Assembly (NCBI GenBank): GCA_900553395.1
Contig: USDJ01000005.1
Span: 10,489-74,488, forward strand
Length of the DNA stretch: 64,000 bases
Origin: an uncultured Mycoplasmatota bacterium
GTDB lineage: Bacteria; Bacillota_I; Bacilli_A; RF39; UBA660
Reading direction: 5' to 3'
The notes beneath the pieces are model-generated. The model made no database searches and was not told the origin of the DNA. It was given only the letters and a program-made list of their open reading frames with translations. Both the position numbers and the translations under genes were made by a program. Below, piece by piece: positions 25,117 through 49,716 of the stretch; the stretch's first letter is position 1, and every line of letters starts with the position of its first letter.

Positions 25117-26769
25117 TTATGGTTCAAATACTATATTTGAATCACTATATCCATCAGCCCAACCAAATGCACCACTTGGTAAGTAATTAAAATCTGATAG
25201 AGATGTCTTTCCTTTTACTATAACACTAGTTAGTTTATTTCCATAAAAAGCATAACCAATATAAGCAACGTTATCTGGTATTGTTATAGTCTTTAAATCC
25301 AATTCAGAAAAAGAGGAATTATCTAAAGTAGTTACATTAGATGGAATTTTTATATCTTCCCTTCTAGCGCCAGCATAAGAATTAATAGTAGAACCACCAC
25401 TCATTTTTCCATCAGAATATATAAAAGCTTCACTATCAGGTAATTGATTATTGGTAAATGCTCCATGTCCTAAATTTTTTATAGTGGATGGAATACTTAA
25501 AGACTCAAGCTTATTATTAGCAAAAGCTTTAATTCCTATAGTTTCTATCTTTGATGGTAAATGAATGCTTCTTAATTCATTATAAGTGAAAGCATTGTCA
25601 GCAATTTCAACAACACTATCTGGAATTGTTAAATCTAATAATTTATTTTTGTAAAAAACACCTGTTTCAATTTTTGTTAAATTTGATGGTAAAACTAGTT
25701 TTTTCAAATTATTTTCCGAAAAAGCATAAATACCTATATTTTCAACACTATTTGGAAGTTTTACACTCGTTAATTTATTTTCTGAAAAAGCATAATCACC
25801 TATATTTTCAACACCATTCGGAAGTTTTACACTCGTTAATTTATTTTCTGAAAAAGCATAACTGCTTATCTCTTTTAAATCATTTGAAAATATAATAGCC
25901 TTTATTTTATTTTTCCTAAAAGCCTTTATTCCTATAGTTTTTAAACTTGATGGAAATATTAATGACTCTATTTGATTTCCAACAAATGCTTCTTCTCCTA
26001 TAGTAACTAAACTAGAAGAAAATTTAATAGATGTAAGCTTATTATCCCCAAATGCACGAGCTCCGATAGTTTTTACACTATCAGGCAAAACTATGCTCTC
26101 TAAATTATTTGCATAAAAAGCTTCATCCTCTATAGTCTCAACGCCATCTGGAATAACTATGCTTTTTATTCCATCAGAATATGGAAAACAATAGCCGGGA
26201 CCAGCACAACGCGTTCTATAGAATAAATTACTACCGATAGCTACGACCTTCTTACCACCAATAGTACTTGGAATTACTACATCATATATCCTATTACTAC
26301 TATTAAAAAAACCACATTGGTATTTAGTTATTTTTACTCCATCTCCTGAGTCACTAACCGTAAAGCAACTTTCTGGTGTTGGCTCTAATTCTACTTCTGT
26401 ATTTGTATTTGAATTAGAATATTTACGTCCATTTATGTAAAACTCATATGTTTTAATTTTGCCTTTTTCAAATGTAATTATTCCATTAGTTGGTGTAGTT
26501 CCATCTATTGTAACGTCAACATCATCGCCATCACAAACTAAAGTGTAATCATCAATCACGCATGCAGAAGGGCTAAATTCTTCAGTTAAATTTTTATGAG
26601 CTACCGTTTGCTCTACTGCGTGCAAATAAAGTTCTGCACTTCTATCATCTGCACTTTCTTTAGAATTACCTATAATATTTATTACAATTGGAGTAGCAAT
26701 CATTGCAATTATTGCGAGTACTACTATTACAGCTAAAAGTTCTATTAATGTAAATCCTTTACTTTTCAT
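25117..26769 (-). CDS. Prepilin-signal protein fused to BspA-type leucine-rich repeats (550 aa)
   Basis: N-terminus 'MKSKG|FTLIELLAVIVVLAIIAMIATPIV' is a class III (type IV pilin) cleavage/methylation signal. The C-terminal two thirds are about 11 repeats of 22-23 aa, 'xIPxSVxxIGxxAFxxNxLxSI'. Confidence 0.8.
   Translation of the reverse strand: MKSKGFTLIELLAVIVVLAIIAMIATPIVINIIGNSKESADDRSAELYLHAVEQTVAHKNLTEEFSPSACVIDDYTLVCDGDDVDVTIDGTTPTNGIITFEKGKIKTYEFYINGRKYSNSNTNTEVELEPTPESCFTVSDSGDGVKITKYQCGFFNSSNRIYDVVIPSTIGGKKVVAIGSNLFYRTRCAGPGYCFPYSDGIKSIVIPDGVETIEDEAFYANNLESIVLPDSVKTIGARAFGDNKLTSIKFSSSLVTIGEEAFVGNQIESLIFPSSLKTIGIKAFRKNKIKAIIFSNDLKEISSYAFSENKLTSVKLPNGVENIGDYAFSENKLTSVKLPNSVENIGIYAFSENNLKKLVLPSNLTKIETGVFYKNKLLDLTIPDSVVEIADNAFTYNELRSIHLPSKIETIGIKAFANNKLESLSIPSTIKNLGHGAFTNNQLPDSEAFIYSDGKMSGGSTINSYAGARREDIKIPSNVTTLDNSSFSELDLKTITIPDNVAYIGYAFYGNKLTSVIVKGKTSLSDFNYLPSGAFGWADGYSDSNIVFEP
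25741..25872 (-). repeat. Near-identical 66-bp tandem duplication inside the LRR array
   Basis: 25741-25806 and 25807-25872 differ at only a few bases. They encode 'SENKLTSVKLPNGVENIGDYAF' and 'SENKLTSVKLPNSVENIGIYAF'. Confidence 0.9.
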
Positions 26770-39310: not shown

Positions 39311-40753
39311 TTAGTTAAGGCCCTCTAAATATTTTCTTATTCTTTTTTGAGCATGAGATGTATGCGCATCTTTTAGCCAACCTTCGTTAGGGTGTGATGA
39401 TTTATCTGATTCTATTAACACTCTATCTCCATCACTTAAAACGTAACCTCTTGAAACTTGTTTATCATTAACTTTAGCACCCACCAAACTATTTCCTAAT
39501 GAATTCTTTAGTCTATAAGCAAGATCTATCACTGTCGAACCTTTAGGTAATTCTATTCTATCGCCTTTTCTTGTAAACACAGTTATTGTTCCAGATAATA
39601 TTTCCCTTCTTACTTGTTCTACAAACCCTTCATTATCCTCAAATATTTTGTCTATTTCTGATAATGATCCTAACATTTGAAATTTTTTGCTTACTTCTTC
39701 TTGCATTCTATATCTTGCTTTTCCTTTATTTATATCCCAATATGTAGTAATTCCAAAAGAAGCAACTCTATCCATATCAAACGTTCTTATTTGATTTTGA
39801 ACCAAATTATGATTTGGCCCAAAGACAGTTGTATGAAGAGATTGATACATATTAGCTTTAGGGTTACATATATAATCTCTAAATGTAGATTCTACTGGTT
39901 TATATAATGAATGAATAAGTCCTAAGGATACATAACAATTTCTTATTTGATCTACCATTATTTTTAATGATAATAAATCATGTATTTTAGACCAATCATT
40001 TACTTCATGAAGTCTTTTATATATACCATATATGTTTTTAGTTCTTACTTTTATTTCATATGGAATTCCTTCTGCAATAAGTATATCTGAAATACTTAAT
40101 AGCATATCTGTTAAAATGTTAGCATTAGCTTGACCCCTTCTCATTAATTCCTCGCTTATTTTTTTATATTCATCTGGATTTAGATAGCTAAATGCCAAAT
40201 CTTCTAATTCAGTTTTTACTCTATATTCACCAAGATAGTATGCAAATGGAACAAATATTTCTAGGGTTTCTATAGCATTTTCTCTTTGCTTTACAGGAGT
40301 TTTATATTGTAACGTTCTCATATTGTGAAGTCTATCAGCTAATTTTATTATCATAATTCTTACATCTTTAATAACACTCGTTAATATTTTTCTTGTATTT
40401 GCTAAATTTTGTTCAGCTTTGGTAGAAAAGTTCATTCTACGTATTTTTGTTACTCCATCTACTAAAATAGCTACTTCTTCTCCAAAGTTGTTAACAATAT
40501 CTGCTCTTGTTGCTTTGGTGTCTTCTAAAGTATCATGTAAAAGTGCTGCACATAAAGTTGGAGTATCAGCGTGCATTTCTGCCAATATATAAGCGACATT
40601 TAACGGATGTGTTATATAAGGTTCACCACTTTCTCTTAGCTGTCCACTATGAAGATAATCAGCATAATTATATGCATTTTTTACAAGTTCTGCTCCATTT
40701 GGATTATACTCTTTTACAAGACTTAACAAATTAGTAATAGTTATTTTAGACAT
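39311..40753 (-). CDS. Rel/SpoT homologue (HD hydrolase, synthetase-like and TGS domains) lacking the C-terminal regulatory half
   Basis: 'HPLNVAYIL…LHDTLEDT' (HD), 'NMYQSLHTTV', TGS 'ITVFTRKGDRIELPKGSTVIDLAYR'. Ends at 'AQKRIRKYLEGLN'. AGGAGG RBS before ATG 40753. Confidence 0.9.
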   Translation of the reverse strand: MSKITITNLLSLVKEYNPNGAELVKNAYNYADYLHSGQLRESGEPYITHPLNVAYILAEMHADTPTLCAALLHDTLEDTKATRADIVNNFGEEVAILVDGVTKIRRMNFSTKAEQNLANTRKILTSVIKDVRIMIIKLADRLHNMRTLQYKTPVKQRENAIETLEIFVPFAYYLGEYRVKTELEDLAFSYLNPDEYKKISEELMRRGQANANILTDMLLSISDILIAEGIPYEIKVRTKNIYGIYKRLHEVNDWSKIHDLLSLKIMVDQIRNCYVSLGLIHSLYKPVESTFRDYICNPKANMYQSLHTTVFGPNHNLVQNQIRTFDMDRVASFGITTYWDINKGKARYRMQEEVSKKFQMLGSLSEIDKIFEDNEGFVEQVRREILSGTITVFTRKGDRIELPKGSTVIDLAYRLKNSLGNSLVGAKVNDKQVSRGYVLSDGDRVLIESDKSSHPNEGWLKDAHTSHAQKRIRKYLEGLN

Positions 40754-40764
40754 AAAACCTCCTA

Positions 40765-40797
40765 TAAAAAATAACAAGCATAAAATAGGTGCTTGTT
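40765..40797 (-). promoter_or_regulatory. Terminator-like hairpin in the rel leader
   Basis: Minus strand reads AACAAGCA-CCTATTTTA-TGCTTGTT followed by ATTTTTTAT, then AGGAGG. Confidence 0.4.
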
Positions 40798-40952: not shown

Positions 40953-40980
40953 ATAAAAAGTGAAATAATTAAATTTCACT
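40953..40980 (-). terminator. Terminator after the 507-aa gene
   Basis: Minus strand reads AGTGAAAT-TTAATT-ATTTCACT followed by TTTTTATC. Confidence 0.65.
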
Positions 40981-40993
40981 TCAAATACAAATA

Positions 40994-42517
40994 TTATCTA
41001 CTTTTAGCTGGCTTTTCAACTTCAATTTCTTCTTCATCTGATTTTTCTTTTTTTCTTGATAATAAATTTTCCTTTATTCTTTTTAACCAACCTTTTCTTT
41101 TCTCTGAAAATAGTTGCTCTAAATTTTCTTTTACATCAGATACAGAAACATACTCTCCATTATCTACATAATCATATTCACTTAATCGTAAATTTGATGA
41201 TAGTTCAGCGTACATTGATGGAATTCCATTTTTATAAGCATTTTCTTTTCCTATTACTCTTCTAACATCAGTTTCAGTTATTTTTTTATTTTTTAATAAC
41301 TCTATTATACTGCAAAGTTTAAACGTTCTTTTTAACTTTCTAAGAGCTTTTTTGCTTAGTGATAACTTTTCATCTGTTTCTTTTACATAATAAATCTTTC
41401 CCTTATTCTTTTTATAATAATCTTGTAAAGCCTTATTAAAATCTTTTCTATTTACATATTCACCATTTGGAAGAACTATTTCTTCTTCACCGACTTTTAA
41501 ATCGATTACTGCTTGAGGTAGTACTTCACCATCTATAACTGTAGATAAAGTCCTTTTTGTAGCATCTTTTCTAGGTGACAACTTTATAGTTTGAATTTCA
41601 TCTACTCCAGACATTATGTCTTCATACACTTGATTTATTAAAGCATTAGAATTATCAACTATAACATCAGCCAAATCCTCAGATACAGGCACTGGTTTTG
41701 GATCTTTCTTTGGATCAGTTGGTTTTACTGGAGCTGTTGGATCCTTTGGATCTTTCTTTTCTGGATCCTTCGCTGGAGATGGTGCAGGTGCTGGAGTTGG
41801 CTCCGGAGTTGGTGCAGGTACTGGAGTTGGTGCTGAAGTTTTTTCTCTTTCAGCCTTTCTCTTCTCATAATAGTCTTTCTCCCATGGTGTTAATGTTTGA
41901 AGGGTTTCTGGCCCACCAACTTCTAACAACACTCTTGGTGATGTTTTTACTATTTTTTCATATTCCTCTAGCTTTTGCATATCTAGTTTTAATCTAGATA
42001 ACCTATCTGCACAAGCTTGGCTTCTTTCAGATAATGCCTTATATTTATTTCTAGAATGCTCAGTTATATTATGGTTTTCATCGTACTCATACTTAAAAGC
42101 TCTAAGTGAATGTAATGCTACTTGAAATCTTATATCTGCTTCCTCTATATCAAATTCTAGGCGTTTTTTTTCTTGATAAATAATTTTTCTATACTTGTCT
42201 TGAGTCTCACCTAATTCGTATAAATATACATTTGTATAATCTGGCGTATTATTAATCTCATCTTGTAAAGCTTTTTCTTTTGCTAAATATGCATTTTCTA
42301 AATCTCTCTTAACAATTTCTCTATAATTTGGATTAGGTAATGAAGATGTATTCTCAGATACATACTCTCTTAAGTATTCCTCTATCTCAGATTCTTTATT
42401 AGCTTTTAATCTTTCCAATTGTAATCTTAAGTGAGTGACCTTACCATTTCTCTCTTTTTTTAACTCATCTATTTTATCCATAAATGGTTTCATTAATTCA
42501 TCTATTCTATTTTTCAT
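40994..42517 (-). CDS. Unknown modular protein A (507 aa): coiled-coil N-domain, Pro-rich linker, soluble basic C-terminal module
   Basis: Clean ORF. Residues 1-227 are paralogous to the N-terminus of the 47701-49359 product. The linker is 'APTPVPAPTPEPTPAPAPSPAKDPEKKDPKDPTAPVKPTDPKKDPKP'. No family recognised. Confidence 0.7.
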   Translation of the reverse strand: MKNRIDELMKPFMDKIDELKKERNGKVTHLRLQLERLKANKESEIEEYLREYVSENTSSLPNPNYREIVKRDLENAYLAKEKALQDEINNTPDYTNVYLYELGETQDKYRKIIYQEKKRLEFDIEEADIRFQVALHSLRAFKYEYDENHNITEHSRNKYKALSERSQACADRLSRLKLDMQKLEEYEKIVKTSPRVLLEVGGPETLQTLTPWEKDYYEKRKAEREKTSAPTPVPAPTPEPTPAPAPSPAKDPEKKDPKDPTAPVKPTDPKKDPKPVPVSEDLADVIVDNSNALINQVYEDIMSGVDEIQTIKLSPRKDATKRTLSTVIDGEVLPQAVIDLKVGEEEIVLPNGEYVNRKDFNKALQDYYKKNKGKIYYVKETDEKLSLSKKALRKLKRTFKLCSIIELLKNKKITETDVRRVIGKENAYKNGIPSMYAELSSNLRLSEYDYVDNGEYVSVSDVKENLEQLFSEKRKGWLKRIKENLLSRKKEKSDEEEIEVEKPAKSR

Positions 42518-42565
42518 ATATTCCCCTCCATAAAATTAGTGTCTATAGTAGCACATTTTTTTATT

Positions 42566-42811
42566 TTAGTCAATTTCATCATCATCTGAAGAATTAAGAG
42601 CAAATTGACTCAAAACATAATCTAGTTCGTTATTGTCTTTAACTTCTTCTAGTATTATTTTATCTTCTTTTACTTTTTCCACTGCTATCATTATTTCAAG
42701 TGGTTTTGAATTCGTTATTAAATAAACATAATTAACATTATGAAAATTTAATTTATCTACTATAATGTACTCCTTACTATCATCCAACTTAACTATTTGT
42801 CCTATATTCAT
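42566..42811 (-). CDS. Small acidic protein (81 aa), DUF1292-like pattern
   Basis: 'IVKLDDSKEYIIVDKL…NYVYLIT…IILEEVKDNNELDYVLSQF' with a C-terminal 'SSDDDEID'. The resemblance to DUF1292/UPF0473 is judged by eye only. Confidence 0.45.
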   Translation of the reverse strand: MNIGQIVKLDDSKEYIIVDKLNFHNVNYVYLITNSKPLEIMIAVEKVKEDKIILEEVKDNNELDYVLSQFALNSSDDDEID

Positions 42812-42829
42812 ATTATTAATCCCTTTCTA

Positions 42830-43198
42830 TCAATCAACATATTCACAATCTAGTGAATAATCTTTTAAAACTATAAATTTTAATTTATCGTACTCTATAG
42901 ATTTATTAGTATTTGGATTTGTTTCTTTTTTTAAAGCTCCATAACTAATTAAATCGCTTACATTTATTTCTATTACAGTCCCTATAATAGATAGTTCTTT
43001 ATATTCATCCATATTAGAATATATATACGATTTTCCAGCTAAGCAAGCATTACTTACCAATGTTGTATATTTTTTCTCTTCATCATCTTTAGCAGACTTA
43101 AGAAGTGATGGAAAACTAACTAGAAAAATTGCTGCTAAAACTATAACTATAGCTAAAAGTTCTGTTAGTGTAAAACCTTTATTATTAATATTTTTCAT
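42830..43198 (-). CDS. Type IV pilin-like pseudopilin (prepilin N-terminal cleavage/methylation domain)
   Basis: 'MKNINNKG|FTLTELLAIVIVLAAIFLVSFPSLL'; about 122 aa from ATG 43198. Confidence 0.8.
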   Translation of the reverse strand: MKNINNKGFTLTELLAIVIVLAAIFLVSFPSLLKSAKDDEEKKYTTLVSNACLAGKSYIYSNMDEYKELSIIGTVIEINVSDLISYGALKKETNPNTNKSIEYDKLKFIVLKDYSLDCEYVD

Positions 43199-43218
43199 AG
43201 CATCACCAGTATAATTAA

Positions 43219-43247
43219 ATTTTAGCACAAAATTTAAAAATAAACAA
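43219..43247 (-). promoter_or_regulatory. Candidate sigma-A promoter for the pseudopilin operon
   Basis: Minus strand reads TTGTTT, a 17-nt spacer ending in TGC, then TAAAAT (extended -10 type). Read by eye. Confidence 0.35.
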
Positions 43248-43275
43248 CAAAAAAAGATTAATATTCTTAATCTTT
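43246..43275 (-). terminator. efp terminator
   Basis: Minus strand reads AAGATTAA-GAATA-TTAATCTT followed by TTTTTTGTTG; overlaps the efp stop. Confidence 0.65.
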
Positions 43276-43831
43276 AAGCTCTTGATGCGTATTTACCATC
43301 TGCAGTATATACTGATACAACTTCTCCTTGTTCAATAAATAAAGGAACCCTTACTACTAGTCCTGTTTCTAATGTTGCATCTTTTGTTGCATTGTTAGTA
43401 GTATTACCTTTTACAGCTGGTTCTGTTTTAACAACCTCTAAATCAACTTGAGCTGGTAATATAATACCAAGTAACTCTCCTTGATAGAAAGATATTAACA
43501 CATCTAATCCTTCTTTTAAATAATTAACGTTATCTCCTAATTGATCTTTTGATAATTCAATTTGTTCATAAGTTTCCATATTCATGAAATTATAAGAATC
43601 TCCATTGGCATATAAAAACTGCATTCCTACTTTTTCAACCATAGCTTTTTCAAGTTTTACACCTGAGTTAAATCTTTTTTCTACAATTGAACCTGTACGT
43701 AAGTTTTTAAGTTTTGCTTGAACAAATGCTGCACCTTTACCAGGCTTAACATGTGAAAATTCTAAAACTGTATAAATATTATCCTCAAAAAGGATTGTCA
43801 TTCCATTTTTAATATCATTTACGTTAAACAT
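43274..43831 (-). CDS. efp: Elongation factor P
   Basis: 'FSHVKPGKGAAFVQAKLKNLRTG'; 185 aa with three-domain EF-P layout. Confidence 0.97.
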   Translation of the reverse strand: MFNVNDIKNGMTILFEDNIYTVLEFSHVKPGKGAAFVQAKLKNLRTGSIVEKRFNSGVKLEKAMVEKVGMQFLYANGDSYNFMNMETYEQIELSKDQLGDNVNYLKEGLDVLISFYQGELLGIILPAQVDLEVVKTEPAVKGNTTNNATKDATLETGLVVRVPLFIEQGEVVSVYTADGKYASRA

Positions 43832-47431: not shown

Positions 47432-47686
47432 TTATTCTCCATATTCATCATTATATTGAATCTTATAATCTTCTATTAACTCATTTAAAATGACTGGATT
47501 ATTTATTTTCTGGCAATAAGTTTTACCATCTTTTACAATTTCTTTTAATACAGCATAATCATTAGTTGGTTCTCCATTTGAATCTAATAGTACTGATAGA
47601 AAATAATTTTCTTCTGTAAGTTCACTGTTCAATAACAATAAATAATTTTTATTATTAGCTAGCGTAACAACTTCATCAACCCTCAT
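47432..47686 (-). CDS. Small acidic protein (84 aa), DUF1292-like pattern
   Basis: 'VVTLANNKNYLLLLNSELTEENYFLSVLLD…YAVLKEIVKDGKTY…NNPVILNELIEDY', acidic C-terminus; starts 14 nt after the 552-aa gene. Confidence 0.45.
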   Translation of the reverse strand: MRVDEVVTLANNKNYLLLLNSELTEENYFLSVLLDSNGEPTNDYAVLKEIVKDGKTYCQKINNPVILNELIEDYKIQYNDEYGE

Positions 47687-47700
47687 AATAATATTCCTTT

Positions 47701-49359
47701 CTACATAGCATGTGAATGTCTTAACTCTTCTTCAGGTTCCTCTACTGGACTATTTTTAGTTTCTGGTTTAACTTTTGCTTTTGACTTGTCCATTTTTTTG
47801 GCAAAAGAGTTTAATTTTCTAAATAAAATCTTTTTCTCATCGTCGTTTAATTTTTCACTAGACTGTATTTGTTCAAACAAAATCTCAAAAGATTGATCAT
47901 TTTCAGGATCATTAAAATTAAAATCTTTTTTAAACATTTTTATTTTATTATTAATTCTTTTATATTCATCTGATCTTTTTGGTATTAATAATCCTGTTCC
48001 TAACGCACCAAGACCTCCAAGCCCGGTACCTAAAGTTAATTTTGTTAATAATGCTGCTGTGGCTTGGGCTGAACCTGCTTTTATTGCAGCTGCTTTAGCT
48101 GCTGTTGGAAGAACTTTTCCCCCAATTGTCCAAATTCCAGTATGTGCATTAAAACTAGCTGCTGCTCCAGTCATTGAAGATATTGTATTAGCTAGTGCTG
48201 TGTTAGCACCATGAAGAGCTACCTTTTCACCAGCCGCCGCGGCGTGCCACATACTACCATTAGATAGCATCTGAGAAAATAATCCTGCTGTTTGAGTAGC
48301 CTTTGCTGATGCTACTAGCGCTGGCAATAATTGTGTAATTAATACGACAGTTGCTACTGCTAATGCAGTTATACCTATAGCTATTAAAATTTGTTTCTTA
48401 TGATTTTTAATCCATTGCCATGGAGTAGTTTTTACAACTGCGACCGGCTCCTCATCTGGTTTTATCGGAACTGGAGTTGGTTCAGTTGGATCTTTCTTTT
48501 CTGGATCCTTCGCTGGATCTGATGGATCCACTGGATCTTTCTTTTCTGGATCGTCCACTGGAGTTGATGGGTCTGTTGGATCTTTCTTTTCTGGATTATC
48601 CACTGGAGCTGTTGGATCTGCTGGGTCTTTCTTTTCTGGATTATCCACTGGAGCTGTTGGAGTTGGCGCTGGAGATGGAGTTTGAATTTTATCTCTTTCA
48701 GCCTTTCTCCTCTCATAATAATTCCTTTCCCATGGCGTTAATGTTTGAAGTGTTTCTGGTCCACCAACTTCTAACAACACTCTTGGTGATGTTTTTACTA
48801 TTTTTTCATATTCCTCTAATTTTTGCATATCTAGTCTTAACTCAGCTAACTTATCTTTAATTGCGTTACTTTTGTCAAATAATGCTTTATACTCTTTACC
48901 ATTAGTTACATTGTGATTTGCATCATACTCATACTTAAAGCCCCTCATCTGATGCATAACATTTTCGAACTCTAGTTCAACTTCTTCTATTCTAAATTTT
49001 AAATGTTCCTTGGCCTGATAAATAATTTTTCTATATTCGTCCTGAGCTTCACCTAATTCATATAAATATACATTTGTATAATCTGGTGTTTTATTAATCT
49101 CATCTTCTAAAGCTTTTTCCCTTGCTAAATATTCATTTTCCAAATCTCTCTTTTGAATATCTCTATAATTTGGATTTGGCCATTGAGCAGGATTTTCAGG
49201 AACAACTTCTTTCAAATATTCTTCTATTTCAGATTCCTTATTATTTCTTAATTTTTCTAATTGTAACTTTAGGCCTCTAGTTTGATTGTTTCTTTCTTTT
49301 TTTAACTCGGCTAATTTATCCATAAATGGTTTCATTAATTCATCTACTACACTATTCAT
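47701..49359 (-). CDS. Unknown modular protein B (552 aa): coiled-coil N-domain, PEKKDP repeats, TM plus Ala/Gly-rich membrane module, charged tail
   Basis: N-domain paralogous to the 40994-42517 product. Followed by 'PVDNPEKKDP' repeats, the TM segment 'ILIAIGITALAVATVVLITQLLPALVASA', and the Gly-zipper-like 'LTLGTGLGGLGALGTGLLIP'. AGGAG RBS 8 nt before ATG 49359. Confidence 0.7.
   Translation of the reverse strand: MNSVVDELMKPFMDKLAELKKERNNQTRGLKLQLEKLRNNKESEIEEYLKEVVPENPAQWPNPNYRDIQKRDLENEYLAREKALEDEINKTPDYTNVYLYELGEAQDEYRKIIYQAKEHLKFRIEEVELEFENVMHQMRGFKYEYDANHNVTNGKEYKALFDKSNAIKDKLAELRLDMQKLEEYEKIVKTSPRVLLEVGGPETLQTLTPWERNYYERRKAERDKIQTPSPAPTPTAPVDNPEKKDPADPTAPVDNPEKKDPTDPSTPVDDPEKKDPVDPSDPAKDPEKKDPTEPTPVPIKPDEEPVAVVKTTPWQWIKNHKKQILIAIGITALAVATVVLITQLLPALVASAKATQTAGLFSQMLSNGSMWHAAAAGEKVALHGANTALANTISSMTGAAASFNAHTGIWTIGGKVLPTAAKAAAIKAGSAQATAALLTKLTLGTGLGGLGALGTGLLIPKRSDEYKRINNKIKMFKKDFNFNDPENDQSFEILFEQIQSSEKLNDDEKKILFRKLNSFAKKMDKSKAKVKPETKNSPVEEPEEELRHSHAM
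48481..48654 (-). repeat. In-frame tandem repeats (about 42 nt / 14 aa) encoding the DPEKKDP-x-DP-x-x-PV linker
   Basis: 'ggatctttcttttctgga' recurs four times. Protein reads 'PVDNPEKKDPADPTA PVDNPEKKDPTDPST PVDDPEKKDPVDPSD PAKDPEKKDPTEP'. Confidence 0.85.
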
Positions 49360-49416
49360 TTCAACCACTCCTCACTAATCTACATAATATCATAAAAACA
49401 TAAATTTGGCAAATTA

Positions 49417-49716
49417 TTACTTATTTTCTACCATATTTATAGTACTAACAATAAATTGAGCACTAATATCTTCTAGTGCATTTATATATGAATAAACTGC
49501 TTCTAAAAACTCAGGTTCACTCAAATCTGCTCTTTTTATATTTAACATTTCTTTGTTTAACATTATATTAGGCATTATTCCCATTTTATAGCAAAGAAGA
49601 GAATAATTAGAAATTAATTCTTCTAACTCTTTTATTATTTCACTTCTCTTATTTTCTATTGGAAGTAATTTATAATACTCCATAAGTCCTACAAACGCTT
49701 CTTTTTGTACTTCCAT
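49417..49716 (-). CDS. Hypothetical small protein (99 aa), sequence pattern suggests helical
   Basis: Its ATG overlaps the upstream stop (TAATG). No motif recognised. Confidence 0.5.
   Translation of the reverse strand: MEVQKEAFVGLMEYYKLLPIENKRSEIIKELEELISNYSLLCYKMGIMPNIMLNKEMLNIKRADLSEPEFLEAVYSYINALEDISAQFIVSTINMVENK

Follow-up and report, generated by a model that had tools for sequence, protein, structure and literature searches.

Does a large protein encoded two genes behind a type IV pilin belong to the pathway of that pilin, or do the genes simply share a locus? This question is raised by a 64-kb stretch from the genome of an uncultured gut Bacillota bacterium, hereafter the window, in which a gene for a small pilin-like protein, a gene for an 81-residue acidic protein (acid81) and a gene for a 507-residue protein (p507) lie in a row on the minus strand. 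A paralogue of p507 with 555 residues (p555) is encoded elsewhere in the window. The original prediction, made from the DNA letters alone, read the three genes as one operon, proposed a surface or secretion-related function for p507 and linked its family to the class III signal-peptide pathway. From comparisons across related and distant genomes, the conserved link at this locus appears to be that between the small protein, which resembles DUF1292, and a domain of p507 marked by LPNGEYV repeats, and not the pilin. The source genome (1.16 Mb, 23 contigs, G+C about 27%, completeness 94.7%) contains the window as contig C5:10489-74488. The related genomes are metagenome-assembled genomes labelled uncultured Bacilli or Bacillota bacterium, from rabbit, sheep, goat, mouse and Hadza human gut, and the genomes of the genus that carries the trio are about 1.1 Mb in size. 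The genes and domains under discussion are the following.

42830..43198, minus strand: small type IV pilin or pseudopilin, 122 residues, with a leader motif and N_methyl and NCBIfam matches
42566..42811, minus strand: acid81, 81-residue small acidic DUF1292-like protein, by orthologue matches to PF06949
40994..42517, minus strand: p507, 507-residue paralogue, whole gene (open reading frame, ORF)
41834..42517, minus strand: p507 N-domain, residues 1-228, a long helical bundle common to p555, from an AlphaFold2 (AF2) model
41672..41833, minus strand: p507 linker, residues 229-282, 35% proline and predicted to be disordered
40997..41671, minus strand: p507 C-domain, residues 283-507, with two 'LPNGEYV...AL..YY'-type repeats; basic, isoelectric point (pI) 8.8
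47701..49368, minus strand: p555, first-copy paralogue, 555 residues, with a p507-type N-domain and, where p507 has the LPNGEYV domain, a Gly/Ala-rich membrane hairpin
47432..47686, minus strand: acid84, 84-residue small acidic partner of p555, of a second, distantly DUF1292-like type

The three-gene minus-strand unit described in the original prediction, with its ORFs, spacings and motifs, is present in full in the window sequence. On that strand the order runs efp, pilin, acid81, p507, relA (39311-40777); 18 nucleotides (nt) with an AAAGGG ribosome-binding site separate the pilin stop from the acid81 start, and 48 nt with GGAGGGG separate the acid81 stop from the p507 start.

A word-indexed search returned only 10 relatives of p507, and a single-sequence search placed relatives within the genus only, in 19 of its 27 species genomes; two further species, G021 and G001, proved to carry the trio. 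Using a profile of the C-domain against 1.84 billion protein representatives, we obtained 158 cluster representatives (50% identity, public metagenomes) at E<=1e-3. The distant C-domains show a clear tandem of "...NQDARxV...GGxFLGNxGIxLPNGEYVxxEExxxAL..." units, and distant LPNGEYV domains stand at the N-terminus of membrane proteins, ahead of a transmembrane (TM) segment and without the helical domain. Contigs were fetched for seven distant C-domain relatives (L073, L075, L076, L129, L130, L132 and L078). At the first six of these loci an acid81-type gene (A1 hidden Markov model, HMM, E 1e-13 to 9e-20) comes directly behind the large gene, and there is no pilin. Set beside the two loci of the window, the large proteins pair with small genes as follows.

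P0110, P0094, P0128, P0136: LPNGEYV x2, TM segment and outer domain; then an acid81-type gene only
P0119, P0120: LPNGEYV x2 and Gly/Ala hairpin; then an acid84-type gene, then an acid81-type gene
p555 (window): hairpin only; then acid84 only
p507 (window): LPNGEYV only; acid81 only

All eight loci (8 of 8) obey one rule, that each large-protein module comes with its own small-gene type. The acid84-type genes behind P0119 and P0120 match acid84 at blastp E-values of 1.3e-6 and 5e-3 and each other at 1.5e-14, and homologues of acid84 follow the hairpin-bearing relatives in L076 and L129. The pairing points to the small DUF1292-like protein and the LPNGEYV domain, not the pilin, as the probable conserved link. 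The rule is also a concrete, testable lead, which names the protein pairs and the domain to co-express. A further small gene may belong to the p507/p555 system: the 99-residue ORF at 49417-49716, upstream of p555, has a homologue (blastp 3e-10) at L073:3337-3630, right after P0110.

Inside the genus, the trio is remarkably constant in order. At least 19 species keep it, even where the flanking genes differ. The order pilin, acid81, large gene is seen in 17 loci with gaps of 1-18 nt and 10-66 nt. Downstream of the trio lies polC at most loci and relA in the clade of the window; upstream lies efp at most loci, and otherwise a lon-like gene, an ABC transporter, other pilins or extra paralogues. 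Both flanks vary while the block persists, and the block therefore seems to move as a unit. Identity to the window is 92-97% for efp, 72-77% for PBP2, 44-60% for the pilin, 47-68% for acid81 and 23-35% for p507. The adjacency of a pseudopilin gene to this family, raised earlier as a matter for other genomes, is thus kept in at least 19 species of the genus, but the six distant loci have no pilin.

The members of the trio also occur apart. In genome G026, efp is followed by an orthologue of the 122-residue pilin with an extension of about 230 residues (HMM E 9.5e-52) and then directly by polC, and the p507/acid81 pair was not detected anywhere in this genome, which is 81% complete. Genome G012 is without acid81; behind its pilin stands a strong terminator (-11.9 kcal/mol, z -5.1) and then a promoter for the large gene. 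On contig L078, an acid81-like gene, a gene for a 344-residue large relative and polC stand without a pilin, and the small gene has a GGTGATTAT-ATG leader identical to the leader of the pilin gene in the genus. Two other genomes (G014 and G008) have neither pair nor trio after efp. Together with the distant loci, which have relatives of the pair and no pilin, these arrangements argue that the pair predates the pilin and can be parted from it. With a pair that is older and exists without the pilin, the pilin neighbourhood says little about the role of p507; and adjacency kept among the small, syntenic genomes of a single genus argues only weakly for shared function.

As p507 has neither a signal peptide nor a hydrophobic or membrane segment, there is no tie between it and the class III pathway or the surface. 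The surface or secretion-related function proposed for it is not borne out. Nor is the proposed link of its N-domain family to the class III signal-peptide pathway supported, given a pair without pilin in seven loci and a pilin without the pair in G026; that link should not be propagated. p507 and p555 share 60% identity over about 290 N-terminal residues, and p555 has a hydrophobic segment at residues 324-356. The AF2 model of p507, built with 21 homologues, shows an N-domain (residues 1-228) made entirely of helices with a predicted local distance difference test (pLDDT) score of about 90, and a linker (229-282) with pLDDT below 50, the length and sequence of which differ among orthologues. 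The N-domain coding sequences of the two paralogues are mosaic: nucleotide identity reaches 97% at gene positions 532-620 (window 41898-41986) and about 90% in a second patch at positions 232-290, with 53-67% in between, a pattern consistent with gene conversion between them.

Family searches of p507, p555, acid81, acid84, two further proteins (o99 and o121) and the distant relatives against Pfam, NCBIfam and PHROG gave only weak DUF1292 matches, and sequence-profile searches of the PDB with full-length p507 and C-domain alignments gave nothing. Foldseek comparison of the p507 model with PDB and viral libraries returned long-helix BAR-like or SMC-like matches (E>=0.008, TM-score<=0.23), which we rejected as non-specific; fold matches of the separately modelled C-domain are meaningless, as that model is poor (pLDDT 56). 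p507 resembles none of the known pilus accessory proteins, PilM/N/O and PilZ included, and a phage or defence origin found no support in PHROG (PADLOC was not searched). By these comparisons, p507 and acid81 would form an undescribed family that matches no described system.

The second gene of the unit is best called DUF1292-like. DUF1292/UPF0473 proteins are conserved across Bacillota and, to our knowledge, have no assigned function; a full-text literature search for DUF1292, YrzB and UPF0473 gave no paper naming the term in its title or abstract. acid81 has 81 residues, a pI of 4.29, a net charge of -10 and no hydrophobic segment. Twelve of 15 orthologues match PF06949 at E<=10. Among ten orthologues scanned singly against that model, which has a cut-off of 24 bits, one scores 27.7, seven score 13.7-23.5 over profile positions 3-74 of 75 and two give no match. 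An hhalign comparison of the acid81 family with the canonical DUF1292 protein of the same genome showed no similarity, so the assignment of acid81 to DUF1292 comes from the Pfam model only; on this basis we regard acid81 as a probable divergent member. Between acid84 and the acid81 family, hhalign detects a marginal similarity (E 1.6e-4, probability 50%). Sequence-profile searches of the PDB with the acid81 alignment and with the canonical DUF1292 gave nothing.

A family-wide search found acid81-like genes in 50 of the 86 genera of the order, mostly beside other unknown proteins, and a pilin lies nearby in only one of 29 inspected loci. Some of these genes adjoin FemAB-like genes (L080 and L132). 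The canonical DUF1292 of the source genome (94 residues, 48.9 bits) is encoded at C9:22472-24510 (L072) in the arrangement UPF0297 (IreB/ReoM-like), ruvX, DUF1292, mltG. These two settings may hint at a cell-wall theme.

The first gene appears to encode an ordinary stand-alone type IV pilin, a known kind of protein. Its leader, MKNINNKG, is followed by FTLTELLAIVIVLAAIFLVSF, giving the class III signature KG/FTLTELLAIVIVLAAIFLVSF, and the protein has two conserved Cys residues. Nineteen orthologues keep the -1 Gly (Ala in two), the +1 Phe, the +5 Glu, the hydrophobic helix, the two Cys and an NPKT motif. Pfam N_methyl (PF07963) scores 18.5 bits on the window pilin against a cut-off of 21.2; orthologues score 19.4, 19.5 and 23.2 bits (the last in G021), a related pilin of another genus scores 29.2 bits, and PilA, ComGC and GspG models of NCBIfam match at the N-terminus. 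A longer, GTG-started ORF of 132 residues (to 43228) is unlikely to be the true gene because the orthologues begin at the ATG (43198). The family of the 122-residue pilin is narrow, with about 50 clusters at 44-97% identity in one genus only. Its orthologues in G024 (L057:4888-5988) and G026 (L124:5659-6714) carry the extra C-terminal domain of about 230 residues and look like modular pilins; Pfam gave no match for this extension, and a DUF1566-like guess was not confirmed.

No pilB, pilC or pilD gene lies in the window (none had been noted near the unit), and the machinery is on contig C9: a prepilin peptidase of 256 residues (PF01478, 57.3 bits), a PilB-type ATPase of 515 residues (PF00437, 420.5 bits) and a PilC-type platform protein of 581 residues (PF00482, 101 bits), with three further pilin genes beside them. 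With this machinery in the genome and a conserved signature, the earlier reading of the first gene as a class III signal-peptide protein is credible. At least 14 ORFs with a prepilin motif, many of them of 300-570 residues, are scattered over the genome (contigs C2, C4, C6, C9, C14 and C16 and the window), so an orphan pilin gene is normal for this organism. One of them, the minus-strand window ORF 25117-26769, is a fusion of a pilin N-terminus with BspA-type leucine-rich repeats (LRR_5, 318.7 bits) and lies directly upstream of polC, where most other species have the trio. In this lineage, the class III signal may be a general route to surface display. Tad-like gene sets are found on contigs C3 and C7. 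The cluster at C3:110193-115212, which encodes a CpaF-type ATPase, TadB/C-like proteins, a ParA-like protein and two 122-residue TadE-like proteins, recalls the pilus cluster reported for the uncultured gut order TANB77 (PMC11680825).

If the three genes are an operon, then the signals around and between them should be those of one transcription unit. The window holds these features.

43274..43831, minus strand: efp (elongation factor P), upstream neighbour outside the unit; Pfam EFP_N, EFP and Elong-fact-P_C; 92-97% identity across the genus
43247..43274, minus strand: weak efp terminator, A/T-rich 8-bp stem then U7; -4.7 kcal/mol, z -1.9
43219..43247, minus strand: P1, promoter-like site with extended -10, TTGTTT-17-TGc-TAAAAT; from sequence reading and conservation
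42545..42573, minus strand: P2, internal promoter-like site, TTGACT-17-TGc-TACTAT, straddling the acid81 stop; from conservation
40953..40982, minus strand: intrinsic terminator 3' of p507, 10-bp stem and U-run; -12 kcal/mol, z -3.9

Most of the signals proposed for the ends of the unit are found again across the genus. P1 (TTGnnn-17-TGnTAAAAT), the extended -10 candidate about 20 nt ahead of the pilin start, reaches a score of 10 or more in 16 of 18 loci; its spacer measures 17 nt every time, and it is kept also where efp is not upstream. The terminator after p507 is present at every orthologous locus, and none of 200 shuffles folded as well as the window copy (-12 kcal/mol, z -3.9). The efp terminator stands as a hairpin with a U7 run, but it is weak in the window (-4.7 kcal/mol, z -1.9); hairpins at orthologous loci are similar or better.

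The implied absence of promoters and terminators between the three genes is borne out in the window for hairpins, of which the 18-nt and 48-nt gaps have none, but not for promoters: P2 (TTGAC[TGA]-17-TGnTA[GA]AAT), a near-consensus promoter-like site that the original prediction does not mention, attains 11 or more in 13 of 19 loci. In G012 a terminator does follow the pilin. Among 380 coding windows, only 0.5% score as high as 11. In loci with P2, the last residues of acid81 are E-[IF]-D(-E), the codons for which supply the TTGAC; loci without P2 have a different tail. No promoter-like site above background was found in the 150 nt preceding acid81. The likely layout, predicted from these motifs, is that P1 drives the pilin and acid81 with read-through into p507, that P2, the stronger site, drives p507, and that all end at one terminator. 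With the pilin between P1 and the DUF1292-like gene, pilin and acid81 would therefore be transcribed together. The operon reading is thus partly right, in the form of a predicted complex unit with an internal promoter. Beyond the terminator of the trio, most species (L056-L070) have a conserved extended -10-like element, TTTTTGATATACTAT, and a GGTGGTAG ribosome-binding site about 40 nt upstream of polC.

What would such a locus do? On balance, and by a modest measure, we favour a composite, in which an orphan pilin stands with an older cognate pair, acid81 and p507, and acid81 is a cytoplasmic ligand of the LPNGEYV domain. The pilin would be cut by the PilD encoded on C9 and then handled by the PilB/PilC machine of that contig. 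In the cytoplasm, acid81 (pI 4.3) would bind the basic LPNGEYV domain of p507 (pI 8.8) as a dedicated adaptor or chaperone-like ligand, and acid84 would likewise serve the membrane-hairpin module of p555. The helical N-domain shared by both large proteins could join p507 to the membrane-anchored p555, an association we propose because both modules lie on one chain in distant relatives and on two chains with a common N-domain here. In this way p507 and p555 would rebuild, from two chains, the one-chain architecture of those relatives, with LPNGEYV x2, hairpin and both small genes. p507 would not be a substrate of the class III pathway, and its link to the pilin would amount to co-location and partial co-regulation in this genus only. 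Our best guess for acid81 and p507 is a cytoplasmic adaptor-scaffold pair.

A wider form of this proposal is possible, though we hold it to be rather doubtful. DUF1292-type proteins would be module-specific cytoplasmic ligands of large, widespread and undescribed Bacillota proteins, with one subtype for the LPNGEYV tandem domain and a second for the Gly/Ala membrane hairpin. In this genus the modules would be split between two proteins that re-associate by way of a common helical domain, which gene conversion keeps alike, and the system would be transcriptionally coupled to a pilin. If so, the Firmicute-wide family DUF1292 would gain its first defined binding partners, and the neighbours PBP2, FemAB and MltG would hint at a role in the cell envelope.

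Several observations weigh against the composite. The binding of acid81 to the LPNGEYV domain is proposed from gene neighbourhood and charge only. The alpha/beta C-domain is modelled at low to moderate confidence (pLDDT 56 alone, 60-85 in the full-length AF2 model), and window acid81 has no Pfam match at E<=0.1. The hairpin of p555 resembles those of P0119 and P0120 weakly, at 28-29% identity and E 4e-4 to 4e-3 in a 9-sequence database and over Gly/Ala-rich sequence. Throughout the genus the pilin-acid81 junction measures 1-18 nt and acid81 appears to depend on the promoter of the pilin, and the block has survived several flank rearrangements. Given the tight junction and the apparent promoter dependence, pilin and pair may be functionally tied.

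These last features are what one would expect if the trio were one functional unit of a type IV pilus or pseudopilus pathway, with p507 and acid81 as cytoplasmic accessory factors, for example a scaffold or regulator of the pilin or of PilB/PilC. The constant order and close spacing seen in at least 19 species despite altered neighbours on both sides, an acid81 without a promoter of its own 1-18 nt after the pilin stop, and a genome that relies heavily on prepilin-type proteins (at least 14 ORFs) all fit such a unit. We nevertheless judge it unlikely, as seven loci have the pair but no pilin, G026 has the pilin but not the pair, p507 has an internal promoter ahead of it in 13 of 19 loci, the pilin of G012 is followed by a terminator, p555 and acid84 have no pilin, and p507 is unlike PilM/N/O, PilZ and other known pilus accessory proteins. 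The same spacing could mean that acid81 chaperones the pilin in the cytoplasm until its insertion into the membrane, with p507 merely the next gene: a 1-18 nt gap with a ribosome-binding site is consistent with translational coupling, and the dependence on P1 extends across the genus. This is the least probable of the explanations considered here, with acid81-type genes beside LPNGEYV proteins in seven loci that have no pilin, a pilin without acid81 in G026, and at least 13 other prepilin genes of the genome, by ORF scan, that have no such neighbour.

The architecture of the large proteins invites a different comparison, in which p507 and p555 are polymorphic effectors of a type VIIb secretion system (T7SSb), with a helical targeting N-domain, varied C-modules and small acidic chaperones or immunity proteins. 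The genome encodes T7SSb-like loci at C11:10847-19434 and C14:21882-26757, with two EssC-like ATPases (1540 and 1544 residues), YukD-like proteins (87 and 82 residues) and several WXG-like proteins of about 100 residues, the WXG-like proteins on C11 and C14 scoring 25 and 20 bits, both under the cut-off; EssC-like genes are found in nearly all genomes of the genus. A helical N-domain of about 200 residues, a variable linker, unrelated C-modules and patchy gene conversion between paralogues resemble LXG toxins, and the small partner genes co-vary with the C-module. That p507 and p555 are such effectors is nonetheless very improbable. Searches for the LXG domain (PF04740) found it in neither p507 nor p555 and, at E<=1, nowhere else in the genome; distant LPNGEYV membrane proteins without the helical domain still have the small partner; and p507 orthologues are single-copy, syntenic and not borne on islands. 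No gene lies between p507 and its terminator, which leaves no immunity gene directly downstream, and genome G019 (95% complete) has the trio and no EssC-like match. We therefore disfavour the LXG reading, on the absence of LXG, the covariation of module and partner, and the trio of G019 without EssC.

How do the parts of the locus compare with systems already described? The pilin shares with type IV pilins and pseudopilins (PilA, ComGC, GspG) a short basic leader ending in Gly, the +1 Phe and +5 Glu, a hydrophobic helix of about 20 residues and a small globular head with two conserved Cys, and the genome has the peptidase, PilB-type ATPase and PilC platform to match. It differs from them in being encoded apart from the assembly genes, in belonging to a family confined to one genus, in lying, for the window copy, just under the Pfam cut-off, and in the C-terminal extension of about 230 residues seen in two species. 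LXG-type polymorphic effectors of T7SSb come with small helper and immunity genes, TelE of Streptococcus gallolyticus being an example. p507 and p555 resemble them in architecture only (helical N-domain of about 200 residues, variable linker, unrelated C-modules, co-varying small genes, a T7SSb in the genome). p507 departs from them in having no LXG signature, a C-module that relatives carry without the helical domain, no immunity-like gene downstream and syntenic single-copy orthologues, and in the one genome with the trio but no EssC match. Finally, acid81 is like DUF1292/UPF0473 (PF06949; the B. subtilis YrzB type) in its length within the range of 75-90 residues, its strong acidity and the near-full-profile matches of most orthologues; it is unlike that family in being very divergent, with just one orthologue above the cut-off, and in being paired with a specific large protein.

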